From NCBI RefSeq assembly GCF_009557235.1, contig NZ_CP045650.1, positions 690,001 through 722,000 on the forward strand: DNA of 32,000 nucleotides, written 5' to 3'. Positions 11,814 to 30,563 of the stretch are shown in pieces. Every line of letters starts with the position of its first letter. Position 1 is the stretch's first letter. The DNA comes from Acinetobacter wanghuae. Lineage in GTDB: Bacteria > Pseudomonadota > Gammaproteobacteria > Pseudomonadales > Moraxellaceae. The notes below the pieces were generated by a model, which was given only the letters and a program-made list of their open reading frames with translations, did not search any database and was not told the origin of the DNA. The position numbers and the translations under genes were made by a program.

Positions 11814-11823
11814 ACATCAACAT

Positions 11824-13437: not shown

Positions 13438-13796
13438 GGGGATGTTTCTGGCTTCGACGCTGGTGATGAAACTCATAGATGCATGCCGAGAGCGCATTTT
13501 CTCTCGTAAATCAAATTTGCATTTTTTAGTCGCAAACGACGAATCATACGCTCTAGCTGCCTAAGGGCAGCTTGTCCGCCTCTCCGAATACTTGTGGTTA
13601 GAGAGTCCGACTGAAGCGCACGCACACAAGTCCGTATTAAAGCCACGCCTCGGGGCTTTGTACTAAATTTAGAGGATCGCCCTAGCACCCTGTTCGTCGG
13701 GTCGCAACGGGTTAAACTAATTGACGATATCTAAGCATGTAGTATTCTCGAGCGTAATGCTGGCGGACGCGGGTTCAACTCCCGCCATCTCCACCA
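13438..13796 (+). ncRNA. ssrA: tmRNA (SsrA), 359 nt
   Basis: The 5' GGGGAUG pairs with the 3' CAUCUCC-ACCA, including the G3:U alanine identity pair. A T-arm is present (GGGTTCAACTCCCGCC). The tag reading frame at 13532-13564 is GCA AAC GAC GAA TCA TAC GCT CTA GCT GCC TAA, which encodes ANDESYALAA. Confidence 0.95.
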
Positions 13797-13875: not shown

Positions 13876-13909
13876 ATGCCTATACATAACAAAATATAAC
13901 TAGCTATAG

Positions 13910-13972
13910 TGTACACCTAGTATGTACACTGTCATGTACATTGTAGGTTTTATTGAACTCACGGGTGTACAA
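13910..13972 (+). repeat. Four TGTACA(C/T/A) motifs clustered just upstream of int. Candidate integrase arm-type or operator sites.
   Basis: TGTACAC at 13910-13916, TGTACACTG at 13923-13931, TGTACATTG at 13935-13943 and TGTACAA at 13966-13972. The int ATG is at 13976. Confidence 0.5.
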
Positions 13973-13975
13973 GGT

Positions 13976-15169
13976 ATGAAAAGAAAAGATATTAAACGCC
14001 GTCCTTTATCCGATACTGTCTTAGCCAATCTCGAACCTGAATCAAAAGAATACCGAGAACTCGACGGCGAAGGCTTGTATTTCCGTGTGAAGCCCGATGG
14101 CAAAAAAGGCTGGTTATTCCGTTATAAAAAACCTGATGGCAAATGGTCATGGTTAGGCATTGGCACTTATCCTGAAATCTCAGGGGCGAATGCCCGAAAA
14201 AAAGCTAAAGAGGTCATGAATGATATTTCAGGCGGTGACAATCCCATCATTACCAAGCAACAAAGAAAGCAACAGGAACTTGAGCAGAATAATGCCACCT
14301 TTGAATCCTTAGCCCGTGAATGGTTGGATACTAAACTTCATCATTGGGTGAGTGACACAATGGTGAGAAACAAAGGGGCATTAGAAAAGCATATCTTCCC
14401 TGTGTTTGGTAAACGCTTATATACAGAAATCAGACCGATCGAATGGATGAATCATTTAAAAGGTATTCAGCAAGAAAAAGGCATCTTTGAACAGGTCAAT
14501 CGTATTCGTGCCATGTGCCGTGATATTTATGATTTTGCAAAGGTGACAGGGCGCATTGATTACAATCCTTTAGAAGGACTGCAAAAGTATCTTCAACAGG
14601 GCAAAAAAGAAAACATGGCTCACGTTAGTGAGCAAGAACTTCCAGCCTTGATCAGAGCCATTAATAACTATCCGACTCATGATGTGAAAATCGGTTTGCA
14701 GCTTTTGGCAATGTTGTTTTGCCGTCCGAGTGAGTTAAGAGGTGCAACATGGGACGAGTTCGATTTAGATCAAGGTTTATGGAATATTCCTGAGCATCGG
14801 ATGAAAAAACGCCGTGAGCATGTGATTCCTTTACCGACTCAAGCCATTGCCTTGTTAAATGAGTTAAAGAGCTATCAGACCAATTCTGATTATTTATTTC
14901 CAAGTCGATCAGACAAGAACAAGCCAAAGTCAGACACCGTTTTTATTATGGCACTTCGCCGAATGGGTTATGAGGGCAGACAAACGCCACACGGTTTTAG
15001 GCATATTGCCAGTACCTTGTTAAACAATCGTGGTTTTGATGAAAGGCATATTGAGTCAGCTTTGGCACACGTAAAAGATGGCGTGGCTGGTGTATACAAC
15101 AAGGCGCAATATTTACAAGATCGTAAACAGATGATGCAGTGGTATGCGGATTACGTAACTAGTTTTTAG
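13976..15169 (+). CDS. int: P4-type tyrosine integrase (DUF4102 arm-binding N-domain plus phage integrase catalytic domain)
   Basis: From ATG 13976 the protein reads MKRKDIKRRPLSDTVLANLEPESKEYRELDGEGLYFRVKPDGKKGWLFRY, a typical P4/CP4-57 integrase N-terminus. The C-terminus has HGFRHIASTLL (HxxR) and GVYNKAQY (catalytic Tyr). The track ORF begins upstream at 13922. Confidence 0.9.
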   Translation: MKRKDIKRRPLSDTVLANLEPESKEYRELDGEGLYFRVKPDGKKGWLFRYKKPDGKWSWLGIGTYPEISGANARKKAKEVMNDISGGDNPIITKQQRKQQELEQNNATFESLAREWLDTKLHHWVSDTMVRNKGALEKHIFPVFGKRLYTEIRPIEWMNHLKGIQQEKGIFEQVNRIRAMCRDIYDFAKVTGRIDYNPLEGLQKYLQQGKKENMAHVSEQELPALIRAINNYPTHDVKIGLQLLAMLFCRPSELRGATWDEFDLDQGLWNIPEHRMKKRREHVIPLPTQAIALLNELKSYQTNSDYLFPSRSDKNKPKSDTVFIMALRRMGYEGRQTPHGFRHIASTLLNNRGFDERHIESALAHVKDGVAGVYNKAQYLQDRKQMMQWYADYVTSF

Positions 15170-15215
15170 ATAAAAATAAAATATTGTAATTTTTAAATTG
15201 AATTAGGGGTAAATA

Positions 15216-16178
15216 ATGTCAATTGATTTAATGATTCCATTCTATAAATTAGAATCAGCTGTAGAGATACTAAATAATAAATTGAAAACGAGAATATATA
15301 CCAGAGAAAATATATTAGCTATAGCACTTTTATATGATCTCAAATTATATGTGATAGCCAAGAACTGGGAGGGGGATCATATTTCTTCATTTTTGAAAGT
15401 TGATATTGAAAATGAGGATTTTAATTCTGATATTATTTTAAAAAAAGCTGATGATTTTTTTAAAAGATATATCGAGATTGAGCTGAATTCAGGGTGTTTA
15501 TTACAGCTGGGTGAAGATGTGATATTAAAATTATATAATTATGGCTGTTGGAGGTGGTGTAATAATGATAAGGCTTTTGTCGATATTTTAAGCCTAAAAC
15601 ATGCTATTACTGGAGAGCCTAAAAATCATAAAATTAGTTTTATGGAAGGTGCTATAGGACTTTCTGTAATATATGATATTTGTATTCATAGCATTGATAT
15701 TTACTTATCGTTTGAGGGTGACGATATTTTTTTGTTGCCAAGAATAGATGATGATTTTAAAGAAATAAAAGATGATTCAAAATATATTAGACCATTAGTT
15801 GATATCAATGATGTTGTAATAACAGCATTCGAATTATCTAAAATTATAAATAATCAACTTACAATTAAACAGCAAGCTCCAATTGATAATACCAATTTAC
15901 TTACTTCAAGTAGCGATAGTCAAAGAGGAAAAAGTCTTGCAAAAGTAAATGCTCAATTAGCTGCTCAAACTTTAGCAGATTACTTATGGCGAAAGGATGT
16001 AGGAGAATCCATCAGAATCGCTGAAATGGCTCTGAATGTATATGCTGAATTAACTCAAACACATCATCACAAGGAATTGCCAGAGAGTGTGGAAAGTTTA
16101 GAAGTATGGATAAGAGAGATAGCTGAAAAATATCCACATTCTAGAAAACCAGGGAGAACTAAAAAGGTGAGCAACTAA
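15216..16178 (+). CDS. Hypothetical protein, very AT-rich, no recognisable motifs
   Basis: 320-aa uninterrupted ORF between int and alpA, preceded by AGGGG-taaata-ATG. No domain was recognised. Confidence 0.55.
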   Translation: MSIDLMIPFYKLESAVEILNNKLKTRIYTRENILAIALLYDLKLYVIAKNWEGDHISSFLKVDIENEDFNSDIILKKADDFFKRYIEIELNSGCLLQLGEDVILKLYNYGCWRWCNNDKAFVDILSLKHAITGEPKNHKISFMEGAIGLSVIYDICIHSIDIYLSFEGDDIFLLPRIDDDFKEIKDDSKYIRPLVDINDVVITAFELSKIINNQLTIKQQAPIDNTNLLTSSSDSQRGKSLAKVNAQLAAQTLADYLWRKDVGESIRIAEMALNVYAELTQTHHHKELPESVESLEVWIREIAEKYPHSRKPGRTKKVSN

Positions 16179-16271
16179 AGGTAAATGGTTATTAAGTACC
16201 ACTTGCTATCTTTTTCTTAGAAACCTATTAATTTAAAAAATACCTATATTCTTTCATGTATAGGCTTTTTT

Positions 16272-16484
16272 ATGACAATTAAACCAATCAGAATCCAATT
16301 TAAAACAACTTGTGAGTTGTTAGATATTAGCCGTGAAACTTTACGGCATATCGTTCGTACAGATAAAACTTTTCCTAAAGCAATGAAGCAGGGAAAAGCA
16401 AAACAGAGTCCAGTTTACTTTGACTATGTTGAGCTTATGCAGTGGCATGAAAGCCAAAAATCTTCTGCTAAAGAGGAGGCTTAA
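16272..16484 (+). CDS. alpA: AlpA/Xis-like small helix-turn-helix regulator
   Basis: 70 aa. TTCELLDISRETLRHIVRTDKTFPKAMKQG...VYFDYVELMQWHE fits the AlpA (prophage CP4-57 regulatory) pattern, and the position after int is typical. Confidence 0.75.
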   Translation: MTIKPIRIQFKTTCELLDISRETLRHIVRTDKTFPKAMKQGKAKQSPVYFDYVELMQWHESQKSSAKEEA

Positions 16485-16486
16485 TC

Positions 16487-16972
16487 ATGCAAGAACTCAT
16501 CACTATTCAAAATGGTCAGGCAGTGACAACGGATATTCTGATTGCCAAAGCATTTAATAAACGTCCAAGCTCAGTTAGACGAGCAATTAAAAACTTAAAC
16601 TGCTCAGAAGAATTTAGACTGCACAATTTTGCACACACCTACTATGTTGACCAACAAGGAAAGAAACAACCGAGTTATCTCATCACAAAAGATGGCTTTG
16701 TTTTGCTGGTCATGGGATTTACAGGGAAGTATGCCACTGGGTTTAAAATCCAATACATTGAGGCATTCAACAAAATGGAAAAGTATTTGCAAAGTACTCA
16801 GCAACAATATAACCAAGTGAATTTTTATTTTAATGTCAAAAAAGATGGAATCAGTGATTGTGCTAGAAGCATGGTTTTTTGGAAGCAAGAAAAGCCAGTC
16901 CTTTTAAATATTCTTGCAACATTGGAAAAGCACTTACAGCTCGATTTATTTCAAGATGCTGGAACTAAATAG
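16487..16972 (+). CDS. Rha-family phage regulatory protein
   Basis: 161 aa. LITIQNGQAVTTDILIAKAFNKRPSSVRRAIKNL...YLITKDGFVLLVMGFTGKYATGFKIQYIEAFNKME matches the Phage_pRha domain pattern. It lies 2 nt after the alpA stop. Confidence 0.8.
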   Translation: MQELITIQNGQAVTTDILIAKAFNKRPSSVRRAIKNLNCSEEFRLHNFAHTYYVDQQGKKQPSYLITKDGFVLLVMGFTGKYATGFKIQYIEAFNKMEKYLQSTQQQYNQVNFYFNVKKDGISDCARSMVFWKQEKPVLLNILATLEKHLQLDLFQDAGTK

Positions 16973-16980
16973 GGGGCGAC

Positions 16981-19401
16981 ATGACTGCAATTCAAGAAGC
17001 CCCGAGCTTAGAACAGCCTTTAGACATTCTAGCAAATTGCCGAAAATATAATCCACAAGATAACGCTTATTTGCGTCATCCTGTGATAAACCGTTTTGGC
17101 AGTCCTGAACAAAGCATTTATATGGATGAAATGACCGTCAGTTTATATGGTGTTAAATATGAACAGCCTTTGATTTTACCTGTACATAATGCACAGCTTG
17201 AACTGGTGCAATGTGCCGTATTACAGAATCAACAGCCTGTAAAAGTCATTCCTGATGGCATGGAAAAAGGATTCGCTTACTACGGCGAATTGCGAAAAGA
17301 TCATCCTGTCATCATCACATATAGTTTGGAAGCATTTTTCAAAATCGCTCAAACGAGTTACGCCGTTGTATTGGTGATCTTACAAGACTTATGCAGACAG
17401 CCATTAAAAGAACTCAAAGCATTCGATTTTGAGCAGATTCAATCTGTGGTGAATCAATTATCCAAAGCTGGATATAAACGCTTATACATGCCAGTCAGAG
17501 CCGAACATATACAGCTTGAGCCATTTCAAAAGCTGGAACAACACACAGAACTTAGACTGCTTAATCAATTTCAAGTCATAGAGGGAAATGAATATTACAC
17601 GGAAATATCTCAGGATGAAGATCCTTTGGAAGTCGAAGCATTTCTAAAGATGGCGATAGCGTTATTGTTGCCTAAAGGACATCTAGCCAAACTTATGAAA
17701 TGGGGGATGGGATACTTCTGTATCCGCCAAGATGGCATATTTTACGTGAATAAAAATGTTAAAGGGGATATGCAAAGCCGTTTCATTTGCAGTCCTATTT
17801 TAGTTAAAGCAAAAACGCGAGATGAGGCTAGTAACAATTGGGGGGTGTTGTTGGAGTGGCACGATGACAAACAGGTTAAACATACTCAAGCAGTATCAAT
17901 GGAACTCTTCCAAACAGATGGAAAAGAACTTCGCACCACATTAGCTAATCAGGGCGTGAGGATTTCCTCTGATCAGCGATGCAGAAACTTATTCCAGTGT
18001 TACTTGATGAATTATCCAATCGAGCAATATGCCTTGTGTGTTGATCGTGTCGGTTGGCATGGCGATGTATTTGTATTGCCTCACCAACACTATGGACAGA
18101 TGAATGAACACATTGTTTATCAGGCAGTGACAGGCTTAGACAATCGCTATAAAAGCAAAGGCACGTTAGAGCAATGGCGAAACCAAGTAGCACAATTGGT
18201 AGAGCAACATAGCTTTCTAGTTTTTTCCTTGTGTACTGCGTTTACAGGGCAGTTACTTAGACCATTGAACCAACAGGGGGGTGGTTTTCACCTAAAAGGT
18301 GGATCATCCAAGGGAAAAAGTACAGCTTTAAATCTTGCCTGTTCTGTATGGGGTAATCCTGAACAATTTTATCGTACGTGGAGAGCAACAGGTAATTTTC
18401 TTGAGCATACAGCTTGTATGCACAATGACGGTTTTTTAGTTCTTGATGAAATTGGAGAAATTAATAATCCAAAAGAACTGGGCAATATTGTCTATATGCT
18501 TGCCAATGGCATAGGTAAAGGTCGCATGACTAAGCAAATTACAGCCAAGCCCATGCACCAATGGAAAGTGATCTTTCTATCCAGTGGTGAAAAGAGCATG
18601 AAAGAAATCATGCTCGAGCAAGGTCAAAAGACCAAGCTAGGGCAGGAAATTAGACTTGCCGATATTGATATAGATCAATCTGAATATGGTGTATTTGATT
18701 GCTTAAATTTTGCTGAAGATGGCGCAAAGCAAGCGATTGAATTAAGCCAGCGTATGAGTGGCTGCTACGGCGTGGCGAGTGAAGTATGGTTAGATTATCT
18801 CAGCAAAGATAAATCTGAGCGCATGGGGCAAGCCAAACAGCTTTTAAACCAATATCGTGAAATTCTAGTCGGTGAGCATACGCAAGGGCATATCAGTCGA
18901 GTTGCAAACTACTTTGCAGTGGTGGCGGTGGCTGGAGAAATGGCAACACAAGCCAAGATTACAGGATGGCAAACAGGTACAGCATTGAACGCCGTTGTTA
19001 AAGTATTTCAGCATTGGTTAAGTGGTTTTGAGCATGTTGGAGACTATGAAAATCGAGAAATCATTGCTCATGTGAAAGCATTTTTCGAGGCGAATGAATC
19101 CAGTCGTTTTGAAGCCATTACACCTGATGCAGACAATATCGAACGTGTCGTAAATCGTGTCGGTTATTGGAAAATCGAAAACAATGAAAAGATTTTCTAT
19201 GTATTGCCTGAACAATTTAAAAAAGAAGTCTGTAAGGGGTATGACAGTCGTAAGGTGGCAAAGGTACTGATAGAGCATGATCTACTTGAGCATGACACAG
19301 CGAAGAAAACCAAGACCGTCCGATTACCGAATAGAAGTCAGTCCATCCGTGTGTATGCCATTAAAGAATCAATCTTTAGTTGCAATATAGATCATTCATA
19401 A
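16981..19401 (+). CDS. DUF927-type primase/SF3-like helicase (P4 alpha-like replication protein)
   Basis: 806 aa with Walker A HLKGGSSKGKSTAL (about 18290-18330) and Walker B-like FLVLDEIGE. Size and position match the replication protein of P4-like and PICI-like islands. An iteron field starts 1 nt after its stop. Confidence 0.8.
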   Translation: MTAIQEAPSLEQPLDILANCRKYNPQDNAYLRHPVINRFGSPEQSIYMDEMTVSLYGVKYEQPLILPVHNAQLELVQCAVLQNQQPVKVIPDGMEKGFAYYGELRKDHPVIITYSLEAFFKIAQTSYAVVLVILQDLCRQPLKELKAFDFEQIQSVVNQLSKAGYKRLYMPVRAEHIQLEPFQKLEQHTELRLLNQFQVIEGNEYYTEISQDEDPLEVEAFLKMAIALLLPKGHLAKLMKWGMGYFCIRQDGIFYVNKNVKGDMQSRFICSPILVKAKTRDEASNNWGVLLEWHDDKQVKHTQAVSMELFQTDGKELRTTLANQGVRISSDQRCRNLFQCYLMNYPIEQYALCVDRVGWHGDVFVLPHQHYGQMNEHIVYQAVTGLDNRYKSKGTLEQWRNQVAQLVEQHSFLVFSLCTAFTGQLLRPLNQQGGGFHLKGGSSKGKSTALNLACSVWGNPEQFYRTWRATGNFLEHTACMHNDGFLVLDEIGEINNPKELGNIVYMLANGIGKGRMTKQITAKPMHQWKVIFLSSGEKSMKEIMLEQGQKTKLGQEIRLADIDIDQSEYGVFDCLNFAEDGAKQAIELSQRMSGCYGVASEVWLDYLSKDKSERMGQAKQLLNQYREILVGEHTQGHISRVANYFAVVAVAGEMATQAKITGWQTGTALNAVVKVFQHWLSGFEHVGDYENREIIAHVKAFFEANESSRFEAITPDADNIERVVNRVGYWKIENNEKIFYVLPEQFKKEVCKGYDSRKVAKVLIEHDLLEHDTAKKTKTVRLPNRSQSIRVYAIKESIFSCNIDHS

Positions 19402-19589: not shown

Positions 19590-19728
19590 TTTTATATTCA
19601 GAGATGCTGTTAGGCTTTATGCTTTACCTAAATCAATAGGATGAACACGCCAATCAGCACGTCAAACTATTCAAATTGTTATTAGGAAGTCATCACTTTT
19701 AAGAGGGATGCTATTTATAGAGGTAATA

Positions 19729-20349
19729 ATGAGAAAGACGCATACAAAATTAGAAGATCATATTTTTTTAGATTGTCGCATTATGGCTAAACTAGGTATT
19801 TTTCGATGTGAAAATATTGGATCTTGGGAATGGCATGATATTGACTCAAAGGAGATGCAATGTTGTATTTCATATTGGTATATATCAGATCATCAAGTTC
19901 TCAAGCTTGGTTATAGAATAGATAATGAAAAATTTAAGTATGATGTGAATGTTGTGAAAACATCATGCAACTATGGTGGATCACGTTATTGGTTTAGATG
20001 TCCATCTTGTCATAAGCATGTAGCTAAACTTTACTTTAAAGTTTGTATATTTCTATGCAGAGAATGTCATAGCTTGAACTATACCTCTCAACAGCGTTCT
20101 AAGCATAGTGTATCTAATAATGAAAATGACATAAAAATGGCTCTTCATGAGAACACTTATATCAATAACAATCCGTATATGAAATTTGAGGGTGTTCATT
20201 ATTTCACTTATACAAATTTAAAGTTTCCTGATGAAAAGTCTCAACAAAAGATAGAATCTGATATAGATGATGCTGTCATTTCTTTATTTAAGGAGTTGAA
20301 ACAAATACAAGAAAAAATTGATAAGGTAATTAATGAAGCACTTCATTGA
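19729..20349 (+). CDS. Hypothetical zinc-ribbon protein (CxxC...CxxC)
   Basis: The ORF 19708-20349 has a better RBS (GAGG) before ATG 19729. The motif WFRCPSCHKHVAKLYF...CRECHSLNYTSQQ is a four-Cys ribbon. Function is unknown. Confidence 0.55.
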   Translation: MRKTHTKLEDHIFLDCRIMAKLGIFRCENIGSWEWHDIDSKEMQCCISYWYISDHQVLKLGYRIDNEKFKYDVNVVKTSCNYGGSRYWFRCPSCHKHVAKLYFKVCIFLCRECHSLNYTSQQRSKHSVSNNENDIKMALHENTYINNNPYMKFEGVHYFTYTNLKFPDEKSQQKIESDIDDAVISLFKELKQIQEKIDKVINEALH

Positions 20350-20562
20350 ATTGATATGTCTGATCAGTTCAAAATGAGAATTACTCTAAAGATTAACGTT
20401 AGATAAAATCTTAAGAACATTCTGAGTTCAAATTAGAGAGAGCTTTATCTGAGAAGTATGACATTTATTTATTCATCTTAAGCCAAAGCATGATTGCTCA
20501 TTTATAGATAAACGTTACTATATCCCACTGATATATACATAATAATTTTCGGAATCCGATTT

Positions 20563-22144
20563 ATGACCCAAGTGCAACTCCAACAACTCCAAAAACAACT
20601 CTGGAATATCGCAAATACTTTGCGTGGCAAGATGGGAGCGGATGAGTTCCGTGATTACATTTTGGGTTTCATCTTCTTTAAATATTTATCTGAAAAATCG
20701 GTTACTTTTGCTAATGAGCTTCTCGAAGGTGAAGATATCAGCTTTTTAGAGCTTGATGAAAGTAACGAAGAGCATGTGGCATATATTGAAGAAATTAAAA
20801 AGAATGCCATTAGCGAAGTGGGCTATGCACTAACACCAAAGCAACTGTTCCATACCCTAGCTAAACGTGGTCGCAGTGAAGATAAGGCTGAGAATTTCAT
20901 CTTAGATGATCTTGCGGCAACATTAAAAGCGATTGAACAAAGCACTCTAGGCACAGATTCAGCAGATGACTTTGCCAACCTGTTTGAAGATATGGATCTC
21001 AACTCAAGTAAGTTGGGCAATACCGCAAGTGACCGTAATGAGTTAGTGGCAAAAGTCCTGAGTCATTTAGACGATATTGATTTTGATATCTCCAATACAG
21101 AAGCGGATATTTTGGGTGATGCTTATGAATACCTGATTGGTGAGTTTGCATCAGGTGCGGGCAAAAAAAGCGGGGGAATTCTATACCCCGCAAACCGTAT
21201 CGACTTTACTGGCGAAGATTGTCACCCAAGGCAAAGAGCGTTTACGCTCAGTCTATGACCCAACGTGTGGTTCAGGTTCACTGCTTTTACGTGTAAAACG
21301 TGAAGTGAAAGATGTGGATATGATTTACGGTCAAGAGATGAATCGTACCACCTACAACTTGGCACGTATGAACATGATTCTGCATGATGTGCATTTTGCC
21401 AAGTTTGACATTAAGCAAGAAGATACTTTAATCCGTCCTCAGCATCTCGATAAACGTTTTGACGCCGTGGTGGCGAATCCTCCATTTTCTGCGAAATGGT
21501 CAGCCGATCCGCTATTTTTACAAGATGAGCGTTTTAGCAGTTACGGCAAACTTGCACCAAGTTCTAAAGCGGATATGGCATTTGTTCAGCACATGCTTCA
21601 TCACTTAGATGAAAACGGGACGATGGCAGTGGTCTTGCCCCACGGCGTTTTATTCCGTGGTTCAAGTGAGGGCGTGATTCGTCAATACTTGATCGAGCAG
21701 ATGAATGTAATTGATACCATCATTGGTCTACCTGCCAATATTTTCTATGGTACGTCTATTCCGACCTGTATTTTGGTGCTGAAAAAAAACCGTGAGCATA
21801 AAGACAATATTTTGTTTATTGATGCCAGCAATGAGTTTGAAAAGCAAAAGACCCAGAACAAATTATTGCCTGAGCATTTAGACAATATTATTGGTGCTTT
21901 TGAAAAGCGTCAGAATATTGAGAAATATGCCAAAGTTGCCACTTTGCAAGAAGTGAAAGACAACGACTTTAATTTAAACATTCCTCGTTATGTCGATACC
22001 TTTGAAGCCGAAGCTGAGATTGATTTAGATGCGATTGCGAAAAAGCTTCAAGCTTTAGAAGTGGAAAGTCAAAAGACCGATGCAGTGATTGCAGATTTTT
22101 GTAAAGAGCTAGGTATTGATTCGCCATTTGTGGAGGTGAAGTAA
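20563..22144 (+). pseudogene. hsdM: Type I R-M methyltransferase HsdM split by a +1 frameshift in an A7 run (21163-21169)
   Basis: ORF 20563-21258 is an HsdM N-domain (LWNIANTLRGKMGADEFRDYILGFIFFKYLSE ... EYLIGEFASGAGKK). ORF 21137-22144 continues with AGEFYTPQTVSTLLAKIV, DPTCGSGSLL (motif I) and NPPF (motif IV). Deleting one A gives GAGKKAGEFYTP in a single 526-codon frame. Confidence 0.85.
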
Positions 22145-23397
22145 TGACTTTACCTAAGTTACGCTTTAAAGAGTTTAATGGGGATTGGGAAGCAAATACC
22201 ATTCAGCATTTTTTGGATAAGAAATTTATTCTTGATCAAATGGATGGTAATCATGGAGAACTTTATCCTAAATCCGAAGAATTTAGTTCATGTGGCATAC
22301 CATATGTGAGTGCAACTGATTTTAGTTCAGGAACATTAGATTTTTCTAAATGTAAAAGACTCCCTTTAGAACGAGCGAAATTATTTAAAAAGGGTATTGC
22401 GAAAAATGGTGATGTCCTATTTGCACACAATGCCACGGTTGGTCCTGTTGCTATTTTAAAAACGGAATTGGATTTTGTTGTACTTAGTACAACAGCTACT
22501 TATTATCGTTGCAATGGTAGTTTTTTGAATAATTATTATTTAAAAAATTACTTTGAATCTGATTTTTTTGTACAGCAATATTTTGGCATTATGAGCCAAT
22601 CGACTCGAAATCAAGTTCCCATTACTACTCAGAGAAAGCTTAGTATCTCGATTCCAATAGTAAAGGAACAAATCAAAATCGCTTCTTTTCTTTCCGCTAT
22701 GGATGAAAAGATTAGCCAACTGACTCAAAAACATGAACTGCTGAGCCAATATAAACAGGGGATGATGCAAAAGCTGTTTAGTCAGCAGATTCGTTTTAAA
22801 TCGGATGATGGTAGGGAGTTTGGGGAGTGGGAAGATAAGCCTCTCTCAGAATTATCAGAAAAAGCTATGTATGGAATGAATGCGTCAGCTACCGAATATG
22901 ACGGATTAAATAAGTACCTGAGAATTACCGATATTTGTGAAATATCTCATAAATTAAAAAGGGATAATCTGACATCTCCTAATGCTGAGTTAGGAGAAAA
23001 ATATAAATTAGGTTATGGTGATTTACTTTTTGCTAGGACTGGAGCAAGTGTTGGGAAGAGTTATCTTTACAGCGTAGATGATGGACTTGCTTATTTTGCA
23101 GGATTCTTAATAAAGTTTTCACTGAAGTTAGATTTAGTAAATCCTTATTTTATATTTGCTCAAACACTGACATCAGAATTTGATAAATGGGTAGTTACGA
23201 ACTCAATGAGATCAGGGCAACCGGGCATTAATGCAGAGGAATATTCTGGTTATATTTTTAAAGTACCTTGCCTAGAAGAACAAGCCAAAATCGCCAATTT
23301 CCTATCTGCCATTGACCAAAAAATTGAAGTCGTGGCACAGCAAATAGAACAAGCGAAACAGTGGAAAAAAGGCTTGTTACAGCAGATGTTTGTGTAG
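22144..23397 (+). CDS. hsdS: Type I R-M specificity subunit HsdS (two target-recognition domains)
   Basis: 417 aa. The start overlaps the hsdM stop (TAATG). Two conserved helical repeats are present: IASFLSAMDEKISQLTQKHELLSQYKQGMMQKLF and IANFLSAIDQKIEVVAQQIEQAKQWKKGLLQQMF. Confidence 0.9.
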   Translation: MTLPKLRFKEFNGDWEANTIQHFLDKKFILDQMDGNHGELYPKSEEFSSCGIPYVSATDFSSGTLDFSKCKRLPLERAKLFKKGIAKNGDVLFAHNATVGPVAILKTELDFVVLSTTATYYRCNGSFLNNYYLKNYFESDFFVQQYFGIMSQSTRNQVPITTQRKLSISIPIVKEQIKIASFLSAMDEKISQLTQKHELLSQYKQGMMQKLFSQQIRFKSDDGREFGEWEDKPLSELSEKAMYGMNASATEYDGLNKYLRITDICEISHKLKRDNLTSPNAELGEKYKLGYGDLLFARTGASVGKSYLYSVDDGLAYFAGFLIKFSLKLDLVNPYFIFAQTLTSEFDKWVVTNSMRSGQPGINAEEYSGYIFKVPCLEEQAKIANFLSAIDQKIEVVAQQIEQAKQWKKGLLQQMFV

Positions 23398-23406
23398 AGG
23401 GATCTT

Positions 23407-24261
23407 ATGTCTGAATGGCTGTTTCCTGTTAATCCTGATATTTATGATATAGATCGTGCTTATCATGATGCACATCAAATATGTTGGGCAAAATACGATT
23501 TTGAATTCCAAATTAATGATATTCTATTTTTATATGTGACAGAACCAATAGGAAAAATCCAATATCAATATCAAGTTATTGGTTTTATAGGTCACTCTGA
23601 CTTGCCAGAAAAAGATAGAGAATATTGGTTAGATCAAAAAGAATTAGAGGCATATAAAGGTGATTACTTTCTAATTCAACCAATTGAAAAAGTTGAGAAA
23701 GCCTCACTTTCTAGACGATATTTAGCCGAACAAGGTCTAATCACCGCAAAAGATACCTTGCAGTCGCACAAAACAACCAAATTTGTGAAAGGTAAATCTC
23801 TAGATAAGGTTGAAGCACATAAAAAATTGCTTAGTTATATTGCTGAGCAGTTTAGGAATGTTGGAGAGACCAACTATCCTGATGAAGCAGGTGTGAATAG
23901 TCCCAAATTTCTTGAAGGCAAAAAAATAACCGTCACTGTAAATGGTTATGAAAGATGCTCTAAAGCGAGAGCTGAATGTATTGCGCTTTATGGGACTCGT
24001 TGCTATGTCTGTGGCATGAGCTTTGAACATACCTATGGTGCATTTGCTAAAGATTTTATCCATGTGCATCACATCGAGCCGTTACATACTATCGCTAAAG
24101 AGTATGAAGTAAATCCGCAAAAGGATTTACGACCTGTTTGCCCAAATTGTCATGCCATGCTCCATAAAACTGTAGATGGTATTCCAATGACGATAGAGAA
24201 ATTAAAAGTTTTTTACAAATATTCTCTTAATAACCCACTTAGACAAACTTTTGAAGAATGA
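23407..24261 (+). CDS. PUA/EVE-like N-domain fused to an HNH endonuclease. Putative modification-dependent (type IV-like) nuclease.
   Basis: 284 aa. The C-terminus, CYVCGMSFEHTYGAFAKDFIHVHHIEPL...DLRPVCPNCHAMLHK, is a McrA-type HNH with two CxxC pairs. The N-terminus, WLFPVNPDIYDIDRAY...ICWAKYDF...INDILFLYVTEPIGKIQYQYQVIG, resembles EVE/PUA-like modules seen in EVE-HNH enzymes. The N-domain assignment is from pattern memory only. Confidence 0.7.
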   Translation: MSEWLFPVNPDIYDIDRAYHDAHQICWAKYDFEFQINDILFLYVTEPIGKIQYQYQVIGFIGHSDLPEKDREYWLDQKELEAYKGDYFLIQPIEKVEKASLSRRYLAEQGLITAKDTLQSHKTTKFVKGKSLDKVEAHKKLLSYIAEQFRNVGETNYPDEAGVNSPKFLEGKKITVTVNGYERCSKARAECIALYGTRCYVCGMSFEHTYGAFAKDFIHVHHIEPLHTIAKEYEVNPQKDLRPVCPNCHAMLHKTVDGIPMTIEKLKVFYKYSLNNPLRQTFEE

Positions 24262-24286
24262 AAACCTCGAAATTTGGGTAAGAGCT

Positions 24287-25384
24287 ATGCTGTTAGAAAA
24301 TAAATTGAAGTATTTTGAAGCACTACTTGAGTCTGCTAAAAAATTTAAGCAACAGCCTCGTGAAAAGACTTTCTTTGACACGGCGATCCGTAATCATTAT
24401 GAAAATCCAACGACTGAGCTATTAGAGTTCTTCTTAAATCCGCAAGAATCTCACGAGTTGGGAGATGTCTTTTGGAAAGGCTTTGCCGATGTCGTTCAGG
24501 CTGAACTAAAGCAGGATACAGACGTTTCAATGGGTCAAATTGAACGATTAGAGCGTGAATGTGTAACGCATAGCGGTAATCGTATAGATCTGATGCTCGA
24601 AACTGACTCGCATCTATTGCTTGTTGAAGCGAAGATCTATCATCACCAAAACAATCCCTTTGATGACTATGTCAAATATGCAAAGACTCGTACAAAAGGG
24701 AAAGAGATTTTAGGGCTGATTCTGAGCATTTCGGGTAAAAGTGAAGCTCTTAATTGGTATGGTATTTCTTATCAACAATTGGTAAATGCGGTACGTCCAT
24801 ATTTGGCGGAGCAGATGCTCAGTCAACCCATGAATAAATGGAACCTATTTGCTCGTGAATTCTTACTTCATCTTGAAAGCTATTACAAAATACAGAACTT
24901 AGATATGAACCGTGTCCAATTTATTTTTGATCATTACCAAGAGATTCAAGAATTACAGAAGCTCAAGACCAATACGATTAAAGAAGTTGTTGAAAAAATT
25001 AGCCAGCAATTGAATCTAATGATCGACAATTATGCCTCTTTTACCAAATATGAGTCATGGGGTGGCATCCGTTTTTATAATCATGCATGGGGCAATTTAA
25101 CAAATACAACTTTGCATATTCGCGAACATAAAGGTGAAACAATTTTTGGGGTAACAACCTATATTTTAAATTTATCTGAAGAGTTACAAGAAGAGGCGTT
25201 TCAAATCTTAAACTGTCATGAAGATTCACGTTTAAGAAATTGGAAAATAGAAAAATATAAGGGTGGAGCTGAACGTTGGTTATGTATTTATTGGGATTCA
25301 CCTGAACCAACTTTTGAAGCAATTGAAAAGTTAATACTTGAAAAAGCAAGGTTACTAGATCAGATAGAAAAGACTTTACGATAA
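24287..25384 (+). CDS. PD-(D/E)XK-type nuclease family protein
   Basis: The ORF is open from TTG 24251 and the first ATG is at 24287. The N-terminal motif is ENPTTELLEFFLNPQESHELGDVFWKGF. The catalytic-like motifs are RIDLMLE (D at 24587) and LLLVEAKI (E-A-K at 24626-24634). Confidence 0.6.
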   Translation: MLLENKLKYFEALLESAKKFKQQPREKTFFDTAIRNHYENPTTELLEFFLNPQESHELGDVFWKGFADVVQAELKQDTDVSMGQIERLERECVTHSGNRIDLMLETDSHLLLVEAKIYHHQNNPFDDYVKYAKTRTKGKEILGLILSISGKSEALNWYGISYQQLVNAVRPYLAEQMLSQPMNKWNLFAREFLLHLESYYKIQNLDMNRVQFIFDHYQEIQELQKLKTNTIKEVVEKISQQLNLMIDNYASFTKYESWGGIRFYNHAWGNLTNTTLHIREHKGETIFGVTTYILNLSEELQEEAFQILNCHEDSRLRNWKIEKYKGGAERWLCIYWDSPEPTFEAIEKLILEKARLLDQIEKTLR

Positions 25385-25413
25385 ATTAAATAGATAAATA
25401 TTGAGGGGAAGAT

Positions 25414-26130
25414 ATGGCACGGCGTAAAAAGAATGATCAATCTGGTGGTGCAGCAATTTTATATTTTGGTTTTATCCTTGTGCTATTTGTTGTTTCCGTT
25501 TCACCAATATTTATACTGTTATATGGATTGTTCTTCATTTTGAAGTTCTATTTCAAATATCAAAAAATAAATAAAAACTATTCAGACTTCTGGCTTGATG
25601 AAGAAGAGAAACAACAGTTCTTGAGAAGCTATGAAAGCTGGATTGTTTATGATGACGAAATTGAAGAATTGCACAGCCTAGCAAGACGAAATAGAGTTTC
25701 AATTAATGCAAATGGTAACTTCAGTCGTAAAAGTAAAGTGGGTAAGCAGGTACAGGATCGTTTAGATGATATTGTTCCTGAATGGCAAAGCCTGAAAGAG
25801 ACTAAAGAATATTTAGAGTATTTACCACAAAGTAGATGGAAAGAGTTTCATGGATGGGCAGCAAAAGGCTTAGGAGGGATTCTAGGCTTTGTTGCTTGGG
25901 CTTTAGTATTTGAATTTTTATGTAATGACTATAAAGTCGGAGCAGCTCAATTGTTTAAAGACTACAGTAACTTTGTGTTCTATGAAGCAGGTAACTATAT
26001 ATTTGGTTTGTCAGGGCTTGCAGCAATTATTATCTTCTTTATCACTAAATGGATTCTCGGATTATTTGCGAATGGAATGTATTCACCCGAGCCACCATTG
26101 GTTGATATCAGTAACTTAAACGATTACTAA
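25414..26130 (+). CDS. Hypothetical 4-TM membrane protein with a ~100-aa soluble central region
   Basis: 238 aa with RBS GAGGGG. The TM pairs are AAILYFGFILVLFVVSV / IFILLYGLFFILKFYF and GLGGILGFVAWALVFEFL / IFGLSGLAAIIIFFITKWILGLF. It is the last gene before the terminator. Confidence 0.6.
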   Translation: MARRKKNDQSGGAAILYFGFILVLFVVSVSPIFILLYGLFFILKFYFKYQKINKNYSDFWLDEEEKQQFLRSYESWIVYDDEIEELHSLARRNRVSINANGNFSRKSKVGKQVQDRLDDIVPEWQSLKETKEYLEYLPQSRWKEFHGWAAKGLGGILGFVAWALVFEFLCNDYKVGAAQLFKDYSNFVFYEAGNYIFGLSGLAAIIIFFITKWILGLFANGMYSPEPPLVDISNLNDY

Positions 26131-26160
26131 AAAAATCCCTGCTTAAGCAGGGATTTTTTT
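26129..26160. terminator. Bidirectional rho-independent terminator
   Basis: AAAAAAATCCCTGC-ttaa-GCAGGGATTTTTTT. The 9-bp stem is flanked by A and T runs and follows the stop of the 25414-26130 gene directly. Confidence 0.75.
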
Positions 26161-26389
26161 ACATATGGTTTCGAATATTTCCAACACGCTTGCCTTTAAT
26201 CCATTGTTTTGGATTAAATAATTCACCAGATTTATCCGCAACTAGAAGCCCAATAATGGGCGTGATAATAGCTAAAAATAAGAAGTGCGTTTGCACGACT
26301 TTCACGTCGTTGTTTTGCAGTTTGACCACTTGGCTTGATAAGTGAGATAAGGTTAATTACCCATAAAAAGGCTAATGGTAATTTGGTTA

Positions 26390-26701
26390 CTAATGCCATG
26401 AGTAATTTCCAAATGACACGATCATTATCGATATAACTATTTCTAACCATGATGCAGAACAGAACAGAATAAAAGATACAATGGAAGCAAGTGGTAGGCT
26501 GAACTTAGGGCTTCCGCCAAACATGTGGAAAATAAAAATAATACCGAAAAAAGAAGTAGGAATAAGAAAAGTGAGTCCCAGATCATCATAATCTTTGAAT
26601 ACAATGATAGTACGGTTTTTGCCTGCTCCCAAAAAAATACCAATGATGATAATGCTAAAGCCTATGAATAGACCTATATTATAGATGTTGTATCCATCCA
26701 T
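26390..26701 (-). CDS. Small hydrophobic membrane protein (103 aa). Possibly the 5' fragment of a longer disrupted gene.
   Basis: About 3 TM segments (IGLFIGFSIIIIGIFLGA, LTFLIPTSFFGIIFIFHMF, LPLASIVSFILFCSA). Two further minus-strand frames (26232-26450, and about 26159-26355) continue with membrane-like sequence up to the terminator. Confidence 0.4.
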   Translation of the reverse strand: MDGYNIYNIGLFIGFSIIIIGIFLGAGKNRTIIVFKDYDDLGLTFLIPTSFFGIIFIFHMFGGSPKFSLPLASIVSFILFCSASWLEIVISIMIVSFGNYSWH

Positions 26702-26826
26702 GAGATTCCCCTAAAAATACTTTTATACTTAAGTGTTATTCAACTTTTATACAAAAAAAATTAAAGATATAATCTTTTCATAAATTATTAATTATACAAG
26801 TATTTTATATAAGATTTGAGGGTTAA

Positions 26827-29703
26827 ATGACAGCACAAAGTGAACAACAACTTGAAAATGAACTCATAGCACAACTAGAAAGCTTAGGGTTTAGCAGAGT
26901 CATTATTAAGGATGAAGTTCAGCTATTGGCTAATCTCAAATCCCAACTTGAAAAAGCGAATAGACTCTCACCACTTTCTGACACTGAGTGGAAACAAGTC
27001 ATTAGCTTCCTAAATAACGGCACAGTATTTGAACGTGCTAAAAAGCTTCGTGATCAATTTCCTATTAAATTTGATGATGGCACAAGCAAGCATATTTATT
27101 TCTTATCGGATGATCCAAATAAGAACAGTTATCAAGTCACCAATCAAATTACTGTAGACCATCGTGACCATAATGGTCGTACCAGTCGCTTTGATGTCAC
27201 GCTCTTGGTCAATGGCTTGCCAGTCGTACAAATCGAGCTGAAAAAGCGAGGCATGGAGATTGCTGAAGCATTTAATCAGACTCAAAGATATACCAGAGAA
27301 GCCTATTGGGCAGGACAGGGCTTATTCCGCTTTATTCAGCTTTTTATCATCAGCAACGGCGCAAATACTCGCTACTATTCGAATGGCACAAAACACATTG
27401 ATTTCACCTTCCCATGGGCGGATATCAAGAACCAACATATCAATGAAGTGGTCGACTTTGCTGACGTATTTCTAAATAAACAGCATCTCACCAAAATGCT
27501 GACACAGTTTATGGTGATCCATGAGACTTCAAAAGAACTCATGGTTTTACGTCCATATCAAATTTACGCCGTAGAGAAGATTGTAGAGCAGGTTAGAAAT
27601 ACCAAGCAGAATGGCTATATTTGGCATACGACTGGTTCAGGTAAAACGCTGACTTCATTTAAAGCCAGTCAAATCATCATGCAGATGCCTGATGTCGAGA
27701 AAGTTCTATTTGTCGTAGACCGTAATGATTTAGACACGCAAACCGCAAGAGAATTTAATGCCTTTAAAGCCGAAAGTGTAGATAGCACCGATAATACCTC
27801 TACCTTAGTGAATCAGCTCGATCAGCGTCACGATAAGCTCATTGTGACTACGATTCAAAAGCTGAATAAGGCAATTAGTACAGACCGCTACTTGGAATAT
27901 ATTGATTACCTGAAAGAGAAAAAAGTCGTTTTTATTTTTGATGAATGCCATCGTAGTCAGTTTGGTGAAACCCATCAGAACATTAAAAAATTCTTTAAAA
28001 ATGCTCAGATGTTTGGCTTCACAGGAACACCAATCTTTGAAGAAAATAGCTTATCGAAAGCAGGCTTAAAACTCACAACAGACTACTTGTTTAATGAGTG
28101 CCTACATAAGTATGTGATTGTTGATGCGATTCGTGACCGTAACGTGTTGCAGTTCCAGATTGATTATCGTGGCAAGTACACGGCGAAAGGTATGCAGACC
28201 AATGATCAATACGATGAAGATGTAGAAGGTATTGATACCAAAGAGCTGTATGACAATCCTCAACGCTTGGAAATGATTGCTCGTTATATCGTGAATACAC
28301 ACGACAAGAAAACCAAAGATCGTGAATTTACGGCAATGTTCTGTGTCAGCTCCGTAGATACTTTGACTCAATACTATGAGTTATTTGAAAAAGTCCAAGC
28401 TGAAAAGAAAATTGAGGATGAAGAGCAAGGTCGATTATTTAAGCCTTTAACCATTGCAACGATCTTTTCATATTCAGCCAATGAAGCTGTACCTGTAGAG
28501 GGGCAGAATGGGCTGATTGATGAAGAGAGTGCTGATATCCCATCACAGGTGAATCAATCGAGCAGAGACAAGCTAGATCGCTATATCAGTCAGTACAATG
28601 AGCATTTTGGCACAAACTTTAACTCTGGTGATCGTTTCTATGCGTATTACCGTGATATTGCTGACCGAGTGAAGAAAAAGCAGATTGATATTTTGCTTGT
28701 AGTTAATATGTTCTTAACAGGCTTTGACTCAAAACCGTTGAATACGCTGTATGTAGACAAGAACCTTAAATACCATGGGCTGATTCAGGCTTTTTCACGT
28801 ACCAATCGAGTATTCAATGATAAGAAACCTTTTGGCAATATCGTGTGTTTCCGTAATCTAAAACGAGCAACGGATGAAGCATTGGCACTTTTTTCAAATA
28901 AAGATGCCAAGAAAATTGTCCTTGTGCCGAGCTTTGATGAAATCAAAAATGATTATGAGAATGCTGTCGCTAAGCTATTGGCTTTGACACCAGACTATAA
29001 GTCGGTTGATACGCTGATCACAGAAGAAGCTCAATTAGAGTTTATTAAGGCATTCCGTGAGGTAATGCGTTACAACGCTCAGCTACAGACTTTTGTGGAT
29101 TATGACCAAGATGTTACGGCGTTAGATAAACAGCATTTTGCAAATTTTGCATCCAAGTATAGTGATCTATGCCGTGAGGTGAGAAAGACCACCAAAAAAG
29201 AAAAAGTCTCTGTATTAGATGATGTCGATTTCCAACTTGATTTATTGCACAGTGATCGTATCAATGTGGGCTATATCCTGAATCTGCTCCAGATGATGGT
29301 CAATGCTGATACGGATGAAAAACGTCAGAAGTATAAAGCTCAAATCCATGATCTTATTGGTGGGGACGTAACTCTACATGACAAGCAAGAACTGATTAAT
29401 AAGTTCATCGAGGAAAACATGCCAAAAATGCTCAATGGGCAAAGTGTCAAAGATGCCTTTGCAGAGTATTGGGATGTGCAGAAGGAACAGGCATACCAGC
29501 ATTTGTGTGAACAAGAAAATCTAAAGCCTGAAGTAATGAAAACAGTTTTGGATAATTATGAGTTCACTAAGCGTTTACCGAGAAAAGAAGAACTTAAAGA
29601 CTTGCCAAACTTTAAAGTGAAGCTGTTTGAACGTGAAAATGTCTTTAACCAACTGTGGGATAAGACAAGAAAGTTTATTCAGACTTTTTATACGGGGCTT
29701 TGA
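26827..29703 (+). CDS. hsdR: Type I restriction enzyme R subunit HsdR
   Basis: 958 aa. The N-terminal nuclease motif is RFDVTLLVNGLPVVQIELKKRG. Helicase motif I is TTGSGKT (about 27634-27648) and motif II is DECH (27940-27951). FTGTP and QAFSRTNR are also present. It has its own RBS (GAGGG) and an AT-rich upstream region. Confidence 0.93.
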   Translation: MTAQSEQQLENELIAQLESLGFSRVIIKDEVQLLANLKSQLEKANRLSPLSDTEWKQVISFLNNGTVFERAKKLRDQFPIKFDDGTSKHIYFLSDDPNKNSYQVTNQITVDHRDHNGRTSRFDVTLLVNGLPVVQIELKKRGMEIAEAFNQTQRYTREAYWAGQGLFRFIQLFIISNGANTRYYSNGTKHIDFTFPWADIKNQHINEVVDFADVFLNKQHLTKMLTQFMVIHETSKELMVLRPYQIYAVEKIVEQVRNTKQNGYIWHTTGSGKTLTSFKASQIIMQMPDVEKVLFVVDRNDLDTQTAREFNAFKAESVDSTDNTSTLVNQLDQRHDKLIVTTIQKLNKAISTDRYLEYIDYLKEKKVVFIFDECHRSQFGETHQNIKKFFKNAQMFGFTGTPIFEENSLSKAGLKLTTDYLFNECLHKYVIVDAIRDRNVLQFQIDYRGKYTAKGMQTNDQYDEDVEGIDTKELYDNPQRLEMIARYIVNTHDKKTKDREFTAMFCVSSVDTLTQYYELFEKVQAEKKIEDEEQGRLFKPLTIATIFSYSANEAVPVEGQNGLIDEESADIPSQVNQSSRDKLDRYISQYNEHFGTNFNSGDRFYAYYRDIADRVKKKQIDILLVVNMFLTGFDSKPLNTLYVDKNLKYHGLIQAFSRTNRVFNDKKPFGNIVCFRNLKRATDEALALFSNKDAKKIVLVPSFDEIKNDYENAVAKLLALTPDYKSVDTLITEEAQLEFIKAFREVMRYNAQLQTFVDYDQDVTALDKQHFANFASKYSDLCREVRKTTKKEKVSVLDDVDFQLDLLHSDRINVGYILNLLQMMVNADTDEKRQKYKAQIHDLIGGDVTLHDKQELINKFIEENMPKMLNGQSVKDAFAEYWDVQKEQAYQHLCEQENLKPEVMKTVLDNYEFTKRLPRKEELKDLPNFKVKLFERENVFNQLWDKTRKFIQTFYTGL

Positions 29704-29730
29704 ATTAAAGGAGCTTAGGGAAGATTGATT

Positions 29731-29751
29731 TGTACACTGGTTTGTACATTG
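29731..29751 (+). repeat. Right-end copy of the 21-bp TGTACACTG-N3-TGTACATTG repeat
   Basis: TGTACACTGGTTTGTACATTG here versus TGTACACTGTCATGTACATTG at 13923-13943. They share orientation and match at 18 of 21 positions. Confidence 0.5.
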
Positions 29752-29800
29752 GCTTTTTTAAGTAAATTAATATTTATATATTTCAATTATTTAGGTATTT

Positions 29801-29826
29801 AGTTCAATTGACGCCATCGCCATTGG
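29801..29826 (+). other. Degenerate copy of the ssrA 3' end. Candidate attR or displaced ancestral ssrA terminus.
   Basis: AGTTCAATTGACGCCATCGCCATTGG aligned to GGTTCAACTCCCGCCATCTCCACCAA (13772-13797) shares the blocks GTTCAA, CGCCATC and CCA. By my hand alignment about 17-18 of 26 positions match. The match is weak on its own. Confidence 0.3.
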
Positions 29827-29992
29827 CTTCTAATACATCAATTCCCTAAATTCATTTATTAAAAGAAAAAAGTAAGTTGTCTTAAGTCAAGATGTATTTT
29901 TGGTTCACCAAGACTATTCTTCGATAATGTAATCATTAAAGTTTATTATATAATTACAATAATCTATGAAAATTAAAATTATATTTTTTTAA

Positions 29993-30553
29993 ATGACACT
30001 GGGGGCATTGATGTCAATTGCAAAGCAAGAAATTGTTAGCCTATATAACGAAGTAAAAGATAGTGTGAATCATGCAATCAATGATATTAGTTCAATATCT
30101 TTATCAAGTGAGGAGGAGCAGAAACATATCTTACAAATCAAAGATAAATTAAGTGAAATTAGTCAAAGCTTCAATAAAGAGATTGATAGTCTAGAAAAGA
30201 ACTCAGAATGGGAAAAATTTACTATTGCCTTTTTTGGGGAGACAAATGCTGGAAAAAGTACGATCATTGAGTCCTTGAGGATTATTTTTAAAGAAAAAGA
30301 ACGCCAAAAACACATTGAAAATGGTCAAGCTTCATTAGATGAGTTGGAAAAAACGTTTTCTGAAAATTCGGGTGCTTTAATTGCAGACTTGAATACAAGT
30401 CTGCAAAATTATACGAATGAAATACGAAATATTGAAAGACAAATTACCTTAATCAAAAAAGAAAGTAATTCTTCATTTAATAATAAGATATTTGCTGCAG
30501 CTGGGATATTCTTGGGAATCATCCTAACACTGATCTATCAGGCAGTGATTTAG
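29993..30553 (+). CDS. Small coiled-coil protein with a GTPase P-loop (G1) and a C-terminal TM anchor
   Basis: 186 aa. The likely start is ATG 30011, preceded by GGGGG. The P-loop is FTIAFFGETNAGKSTIIESL (30236-30259), followed by a coiled-coil-like stretch and then IFAAAGIFLGIILTLIYQAVI. No DxxG or NKxD motif follows the P-loop. Confidence 0.6.
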   Translation: MTLGALMSIAKQEIVSLYNEVKDSVNHAINDISSISLSSEEEQKHILQIKDKLSEISQSFNKEIDSLEKNSEWEKFTIAFFGETNAGKSTIIESLRIIFKEKERQKHIENGQASLDELEKTFSENSGALIADLNTSLQNYTNEIRNIERQITLIKKESNSSFNNKIFAAAGIFLGIILTLIYQAVI

Positions 30554-30563
30554 GAGAAATAAG

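Follow-up and report, generated by a model that had tools for sequence, protein, structure and literature searches.

Single genes that appear separately exchangeable occupy the slot between hsdMS and hsdR in a type I restriction-modification locus of Acinetobacter wanghuae

The window analyzed here, a 32,000-nucleotide (nt) stretch of the A. wanghuae genome (contig NZ_CP045650.1, positions 690,001 to 722,000), contains a type I restriction-modification (R-M) locus in which four genes, designated A to D, lie between hsdS and hsdR in the order hsdS-A-B-C-D-hsdR (Table 1). The stop codon of hsdM (TAA, 22142-22144) overlaps the ATG of hsdS (22144) in the sequence TAATG (22142-22146). Genes A, B, and C follow on the same strand, separated by 9 nt between the end of hsdS (23397) and the start of gene A (23407), 25 nt between the end of gene A (24261) and the ATG of gene B (24287), and 29 nt between the end of gene B (25384) and the start of gene C (25414). 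Each is preceded by a purine-rich stretch (GAGGGA, GGGTAAGAG, and GAGGGGAAG, respectively). As assessed by a consensus scan, the top-ranked terminator by far, with 15 pairs, is found at the end of gene C; it is predicted to be bidirectional because it is flanked by an A-run and a T-run. Non-R-M coding sequence thus extends over 2.7 kb from hsdS to the terminator (23407-26130). Given these short gaps and the lack of any terminator ahead of 26128, transcription from the hsdMS promoter probably continues through genes A, B, and C in the window copy. On the other hand, hsdR is predicted from the consensus scan to be separately promoted from its own AT-rich region, in which GC content is 0.316 (26501-27000) and the best + strand promoter-like site (TTTATA-16-TATAAT) has 10/12 matches. 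An earlier note on this DNA, made from the sequence alone, had described the hsdM/hsdS overlap, the three closely spaced open reading frames (ORFs) with their purine-rich ribosome-binding sites, a first strong terminator after the third of them, the AT-rich region ahead of hsdR at 26827, and ∼2.7 kb of nested non-R-M genes, all of which were borne out.

Table 1. Features of the window discussed in the text (positions are those of the window)
Feature	Position	Strand	Evidence
tmRNA (ssrA) gene, attachment side of the island carrying the locus	13438..13796	+	ARAGORN
Tyrosine integrase, directly after tmRNA	13922..15169	+	ORF; Phage_integrase Pfam matches in the identical copy of the second A. wanghuae assembly (L082)
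Island backbone: tyrosine integrase, small ORFs, DUF927 primase/helicase-like protein (16981-19401)	13922..19401	+	
hsdM, type I methyltransferase, split (20563-21258 and 21137-22144)	20563..22144	+	Pfam HsdM_N and N6_Mtase across two ORFs
hsdS, specificity subunit	22144..23397	+	Pfam Methylase_S; PADLOC Specificity_I
Gene A, PUA-like (ASCH/EVE-fold) N-terminal domain and McrA-type HNH nuclease domain	23407..24261	+	Pfam, profile search, AlphaFold2 (AF2)/Foldseek
Gene B, PD-(D/E)XK nuclease (PDDEXK_4) with an uncharacterized C-terminal domain	24287..25384	+	PADLOC PDC-S26; Pfam PF14281
Gene C, 238-amino acid (aa) membrane protein, 3-4 transmembrane segments, central helical soluble domain of ∼100 aa	25414..26130	+	Hydropathy, AF2
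Predicted intrinsic terminator, bidirectional, common to convergent genes C and D	26128..26161	.	Consensus scan, 15-pair stem
Gene D, 178-aa membrane protein, ∼5 transmembrane segments, broken here	26159..26701	-	tblastn of intact homologs across three frames
Best + strand promoter-like site, upstream of hsdR	26746..26773	+	Consensus scan, 10/12 matches
hsdR, type I restriction subunit, EcoR124-like family	26827..29703	+	Pfam HSDR_N, SWI2_SNF2, T1R_D3-like, EcoR124_C; PADLOC REase_I 1.9e-300

Gene B, for which the earlier note had read a PD-(D/E)XK-type protein, indeed matches Pfam PDDEXK_4 (PF14281) at 1.3e-15, and its D101, E114, and K116 (D...ExK) are invariant among 20 diverse homologs. 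Over almost its entire length (residues 7-364 of 365, profile positions 4-356 of 358), it also matches PADLOC model PDLC04981 (PDC-S26) with an E-value of 9.1e-126, and 12 more PDC-S26 sub-models match it as well. PDC-S26 is one of 145 predicted PADLOC candidates that originate from genes found inside BREX, DISARM, and type I R-M loci (bioRxiv 10.1101/2024.01.29.577857). Judged by its sequence, gene B is this catalogued single-gene phage defense candidate, which it resembles end to end, in being on the same strand, and in being embedded between hsdS and hsdR, as the candidate was defined. PDC-S26, PDC-S18, and PDC-S14 were not found in the supplements of that paper. Pfam, NCBIfam, and PADLOC searches found no ABC-ATPase or anticodon-nuclease domain in gene B, and a PDB sequence search with it returned nothing useful. 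A TTG at 24251 was considered as an alternative start and rejected, since the ∼365-aa homologs all begin at the Met encoded at 24287. Separately, three Psychrobacter loci (L036, L038, and L042, ∼8755-11125) carry two gene B-family (PDC-S26) paralogs in tandem on the same strand.

Gene A combines two domains, as the earlier note had recognized (PUA/EVE-like and HNH). A protein of A. wanghuae is 100% identical to its product. The HNH domain matches Pfam HNH at 5e-6, and a profile built from 32 gene A homologs matches the HNH domain of Escherichia coli McrA (6GHC) at 1.4e-5; a PDB sequence search with gene A alone gave nothing useful, McrA being found only by the family profile. Ten residues are invariant (C199, C202, H219, H221, H222, C245, N247, C248, H249, and H253), among them a predicted Cys4 zinc site (C199, C202, C245, and C248) and the putative catalytic His/Asn residues. 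The N terminus forms a β-barrel in the AF2 model (pLDDT 87.5 overall, about 90 or more for residues 1-150). Foldseek matched this N-terminal domain with a probability of 1.00 to ZmASCH, to the EVE structures 1zce/2gbs, and to THYN1 with 5-methylcytosine DNA, with weaker matches to YTH and McrB-N, all in keeping with a PUA-like fold. The 50 best structural matches did not include VcaM4I. Modification-dependent restriction endonucleases in which a PUA-superfamily reader is joined to HNH have been documented (PMC6765204, PMC7897488). Gene A is therefore most likely, by predicted architecture, a modification-dependent, type IV-like restriction endonuclease, and not a member of the VcaM4I family; we call it type IV-like by architecture only because it misses the Pfam EVE and PADLOC models. 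One distant, longer relative of gene A (P0207) does carry PF01878, and a homolog in Exiguobacterium sits outside R-M loci, in a pAgo/SLFN-helicase island.

Both remaining genes encode membrane proteins. The gene C product has three hydrophobic stretches, the first of which spans 34 residues and includes an invariant Pro, so that four transmembrane segments, as given in the earlier note, are possible; the AF2 model shows this stretch as a single long helix and leaves the number at three or four. No match to gene C was found in Pfam, NCBIfam, PADLOC, PHROGs, or PDB, nor in IMG/VR viral contigs, and a metagenome scan with it returned one contig only, of 1.7 kb. An exhaustive profile search delineated an unannotated family of 208 clusters, mostly of 230-260 aa, with shared motifs: a basic N terminus, the Pro of the first stretch noted above, SDFWLxxxEK, NxDGSxSxRSxxGK, LPxxRW, and a C-terminal SPxPPxVxxxNxDxY. 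Long members of the family are fused to mixed partners (TonB_C, AAA, TerB, TM2, and ALTTAQ repeats), which suggests no single function. Its remote members are solo: some follow nrdAB-yfaE, others have unrelated genes around them, and in Gilliamella the gene lies between mtlR and rlmL. The idea that gene C might be a Zorya/ExbB-like motor was rejected, the best Foldseek match in PDB (to ExbB/MotA-type stators) having an E-value of 0.6 and a TM-score of 0.16. In Acinetobacter sp. A2 (L001), whose locus is the one most closely related to that of the window, a Transposase_mut (IS256-type) insertion at 10713-11921 cuts the 3′ end of gene C, leaving 212 aa.

Gene D is intact (178 aa) in L082, a second A. 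wanghuae assembly, and is broken in the window by two insertions, one a surplus CAGAA unit in (CAGAA)3 (26455-26469) and the other a surplus A in A5 (26274-26278); the window copy is either a pseudogene or misassembled. The opposed ORF of 103 codons (26390-26701) that had earlier been taken for a small membrane gene in its own right is the 5′ part of this frameshifted gene. No family, fold, or PADLOC/Pfam/NCBIfam/PHROGs match was found for gene D, and neither C nor D has a tblastn match among 72,556 plasmids. In Halopseudomonas oceani (L018, 9995-11961), a gene D-like protein (31% identity, BLASTP 4e-11) is encoded convergently and directly 3′ of a gene B homolog. This single B-D adjacency has no hsd genes nearby, and WYL/WCX regulators and an ADP-ribosylglycohydrolase flank the region.

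The arrangement of the genes varies among relatives. Every locus with a close gene C (L001-L009 and L082) keeps the C-D-hsdR arrangement with ∼74% nucleotide identity to the window, and C and D are always convergent around a common terminator; the contig of L007 is shorter and begins just upstream of gene C. Between gene C and the conserved 3′ end of hsdS (23266-23396), which forms the left border of the variable region, both gene content and order vary (A, B, PDC-S18, PDC-S14, and others), and only the conserved parts align with relatives. In this stretch, a DUF5655 protein corresponds to PADLOC PDC-S18 and a DUF4357 protein to PDC-S14. Acinetobacter sp. A2 has A-DUF5655-B-C-D-hsdR, while L002-L004 have hsdS-B-(GIY-YIG/DUF4357)-A followed, after 283 nt, by C-D-hsdR (gene A is the gene upstream of C, with the 283-nt gap, throughout L002-L005). 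L008 has B-DUF4357-(opposed 115-aa gene)-C-D, and L006 has hsdS-152aa-C-D-hsdR with neither A nor B. Genes C and D are both missing from A. bereziniae, which has hsdS-DUF4431-B-A-DUF5655-282aa-143aa-hsdR, and from A. lwoffii and A. tianfuensis, where a gene B that is 77-79% identical lies directly before hsdR; gene B is found directly before hsdR without C or D in many other genera too. The orders seen are thus A-B-C, A-PDC-S18-B-C, B-PDC-S14-A-C, and B-A-PDC-S18. When the window is compared with Acinetobacter sp. A2, B-C-D-hsdR is 97% identical, whereas gene A is only ∼70% identical (over its HNH half). A 122-152-aa protein with a weak DUF4431 match and no PADLOC match was also seen directly after hsdS in several type I loci of Acinetobacter (L014, L017, L006, L008, and L093-L095); this small DUF4431-like protein is putatively another exchangeable cassette.

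A wider sample of 71 species-level gene B loci was sorted by their hsd content, detected with single-sequence phmmer queries. Gene B is embedded between hsdM/S and hsdR in 26 of them, has a partial hsd context in 6, and lacks detectable hsd genes in 39; the non-embedded copies that were inspected are solo, beside unrelated genes. Genes C and D accompany gene B in one of the 71 loci and gene A does so in three, which leaves 70 in which gene B occurs without gene C.

Two findings carry our interpretation: different single-gene sets occupy the slot from hsdS to the hsdR side in close relatives, and two of the window genes (A and B) carry intact nuclease catalytic motifs. We favor, with a probability of about 0.7, the view that the slot between hsdMS and hsdR is a landing pad that exchanges independent single-gene modules, and that its occupants are not an obligate unit. 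Such modules would gather, and be swapped, in the interval that separates the hsdMS operon from hsdR and its own promoter. Gene A, from its architecture, would cut DNA whose bases are modified, thereby complementing the type I enzyme, which acts on unmodified DNA, and gene B would act as an autonomous nuclease-type defense candidate. C and D are a convergent membrane-gene pair belonging to the conserved hsdR-side block of this sub-lineage. Because of the pattern of nucleotide identity, we propose that cassettes turn over by recombination between the conserved flanks, i.e. the 3′ end of hsdS and the C/hsdR block. That type I R-M loci serve as docking sites for other immunity genes, as the earlier note had stated, is a published discovery principle named "guilt-by-embedding" (Payne, Hughes, Fineran, Jackson 2024, bioRxiv 10.1101/2024.01.29.577857).

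Several observations weigh against this landing-pad view. PDC-S26 stands as a prediction, as do the other candidates of the 145 (bioRxiv 10.1101/2024.01.29.577857). The 39 gene B loci scored as lacking hsd genes may hide divergent R-M families missed by phmmer. In 13 of the 26 embedded loci, the gene B stop codon is positioned -30 to +52 nt relative to the hsdR start, and such abutting or overlapping suggests that gene B may be coupled to HsdR and not fully autonomous. Gene A has no Pfam EVE (PF01878) match at E ≤ 0.1 and no PADLOC type IV match at all, the weak mREase_IV matches coming from its relatives and not from gene A itself, and its fold match fails to separate ASCH from EVE (TM-score ∼0.55 on target). 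Finally, A, B, and DUF5655 recur together in several Acinetobacter type I loci, which leaves room for some cooperation among them.

The earlier note had explained the same genes differently, proposing that A-B-C, or B-C alone, form one multi-gene system, with A and/or B as the nuclease/sensor that signals to the membrane effector C. The shared strand, the gaps of 9-29 nt, and the one common terminator in the window would suit such a unit, as would the B-C junction kept in Acinetobacter sp. A2. Nevertheless, the comparative data largely refute it. Gene B does without C in 70/71 loci, including the 77-79% identical copies right before hsdR, and C does without A or B in L006; A precedes C by 283 nt in L002-L005, an opposed gene intervenes in L008, and remote relatives of gene C are solo. 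The conserved co-occurrence of A, B, and C as neighbors beyond the locus, which the note had suggested looking for, was not found, and PADLOC has no multi-gene model holding these proteins. We thus consider a shared system highly improbable. What stands of the note's overall interpretation is the nesting of the genes, the two nuclease-type candidates, and the docking-site idea; its remark that no named multi-gene system matches is true, but gene B singly is the candidate PDC-S26 and gene A has a known type IV architecture. Gene B might instead be a PrrC-like guard, kept inactive by HsdMSR and unleashed as a nuclease once R-M is disabled by an anti-restriction protein of a phage. Its position between hsdS and hsdR in 26/71 loci from many genera, the possible translational coupling to hsdR in the 13/26 loci mentioned above, and the precedent of PrrC in EcoprrI all argue for a guard, but at least 39/71 loci have no detectable hsd genes, several of those inspected being clearly solo, and the ABC-ATPase and anticodon-nuclease domains are missing, so that this role seems unlikely.

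For C and D, a separate two-gene membrane module on the hsdR side, acting as an abortive-infection effector with its partner or as a toxin/immunity pair, is conceivable, although we think it quite unlikely. C-D-hsdR is collinear in all loci with gene C (L001-L009 and L082), always with C and D convergent, D is specifically broken in the window copy, and the D-like gene that converges on a gene B homolog in Halopseudomonas lies in a defense island-like region. However, the close C-D pair is limited to a narrow Acinetobacter sub-lineage, the remote C relatives (Gilliamella, nrdAB-linked) have no called D-like neighbor and sit among housekeeping genes, and neither protein matches a family, fold, or defense database. 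The chance that C/D are an unrecognized hsdR-anchored immunity or toxin-immunity module, or that gene B is a PrrC-like guard translationally coupled to hsdR, strikes us as slim; were either true, the coincident disruption of hsdM and D would stem from a functional link. It is equally improbable that C/D, or the possible coupling of B to HsdR, will be shown as defense units on present evidence. We give little credence, too, to the suggestion that the embedded genes play no part in immunity and are hitch-hikers, selfish or neutral, tolerated in defense loci that act as a genomic sink. The sink idea was raised by Payne et al. (bioRxiv 10.1101/2024.01.29.577857), and it would account for gene C-family relatives in non-defense contexts and for the breaks in hsdM and D, which suggest relaxed selection on the locus. 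It fits poorly with the intact, invariant catalytic motifs and defense-typical nuclease architectures of A and B, with the alternative cassettes in the slot that are also PADLOC candidates (PDC-S14 and PDC-S18), and with the further defense-type genes (Leo/dynamin-like) held by the island.

Compared with known systems, the catalog of PDC candidates covers the locus in part. PDC-S26 describes gene B, and PDC-S18 and PDC-S14 occupy the neighboring slot in relatives of the window, but PADLOC-DB v2.0.0 has no entry for A, C, or D; the PADLOC check proposed earlier thus named one of the four genes, and the parallel check with AlphaFold and Foldseek gave a PUA-like fold for A and no significant PDB match for C. 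With its N-terminal PUA-like β-barrel and C-terminal Zn-binding HNH, gene A resembles the PUA-HNH enzymes (EVE-HNH VcaM4I/TspA15I, SRA-HNH TagI/ScoMcrA, and E. coli McrA), and its HNH profile matches EcoKMcrA (6GHC); unlike the VcaM4I EVE-HNH group, it has no Pfam EVE match and its fold is equally near ASCH. Physical linkage of two enzymes, one directed at unmodified and the other at modified DNA, is also seen in the immigration control region of E. coli K-12 (hsdRMS beside mrr and mcrBC) and in BREX with its embedded BrxU. In contrast to both, gene A is nested within the type I locus, where it apparently shares the hsdMS transcript, and is from another enzyme family. PrrC (EcoprrI) and RloC, to which the earlier note had pointed, are likewise nested in type I hsd loci, but they are ABC-ATPase anticodon nucleases, and Pfam, NCBIfam, and PADLOC searches found no such domains in A, B, C, or D.

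Taken together, these findings indicate that the genes between hsdMS and hsdR are real, but that they look like separately exchangeable single genes and not like a new multi-gene system. Embedding in type I loci (which has been mined systematically), the PDC-S26 entry, and the gene A architecture are already known; residual novelty lies in C, D, and the possible coupling of B to HsdR. The window is a clean, well-resolved example of a mobile island whose type I R-M locus serves as an exchange site for single-gene defense candidates, and, in a genus that is tractable, it places a predicted PDC-S26 candidate beside a predicted type IV enzyme. Its only truly uncharacterized elements are the membrane proteins C and D, to which present evidence gives no defense tie.

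The whole hsd locus appears to be cargo of a genomic island integrated at ssrA, which encodes the transfer-messenger RNA (tmRNA), because an integrase, small ORFs, and a DUF927 protein directly follow the tmRNA gene; the far end of the island lies outside the window. Comparison of window positions 13406-32000 with the second A. wanghuae assembly (L082, WITK01000011.1) revealed exactly three insertions and zero substitutions over 18.6 kb. The insertions (A7 versus A6 at 21163-21169, A5 versus A4 at 26274-26278, and (CAGAA)3 versus (CAGAA)2 at 26455-26469) all lie within hsdM or D, disrupting both; the probability that all three would land in these 2.1 kb is ∼0.0015. The first of them, one extra A, is the +1 frameshift that splits hsdM, which the earlier note had overlooked; in L082, which is otherwise identical, hsdM is intact and encodes a 526-aa protein. 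The other type I genes of the window, hsdS and hsdR, are intact. Generic assembly noise was considered as an explanation, and set beside it are the concentration of the three indels in hsdM and D and the genes upstream of the tmRNA (1-13400), which are housekeeping genes and look intact. The breaks could be real inactivation (slipped-strand or phase variation) or assembly error.

In other loci, hsdM is split into 361 + 175 aa in L002 and L005 (hsdM at 1149-2709), and also in L003 and L004, which are from other samples, and hsdR (8640-11513) is split into three ORFs in the metagenome contigs L002 and L005. Decay of type I genes around intact embedded genes thus seems recurrent. Elsewhere in the window, two overlapping + strand ORFs of 135 and 149 aa, in different frames and without a Pfam match (6378-7068), could be a frameshifted gene or chance ORFs. 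Directly after hsdR, the window encodes a LeoC-like protein (29993-32000, PADLOC LeoC 4.7e-54); in L082 (16599-20854), the LeoC-like gene is followed by genes for a 656-aa GYF_2 protein and a 581-aa dynamin-like GTPase, and this Leo/dynamin-type cluster adjoining the R-M locus is a candidate defense cluster.

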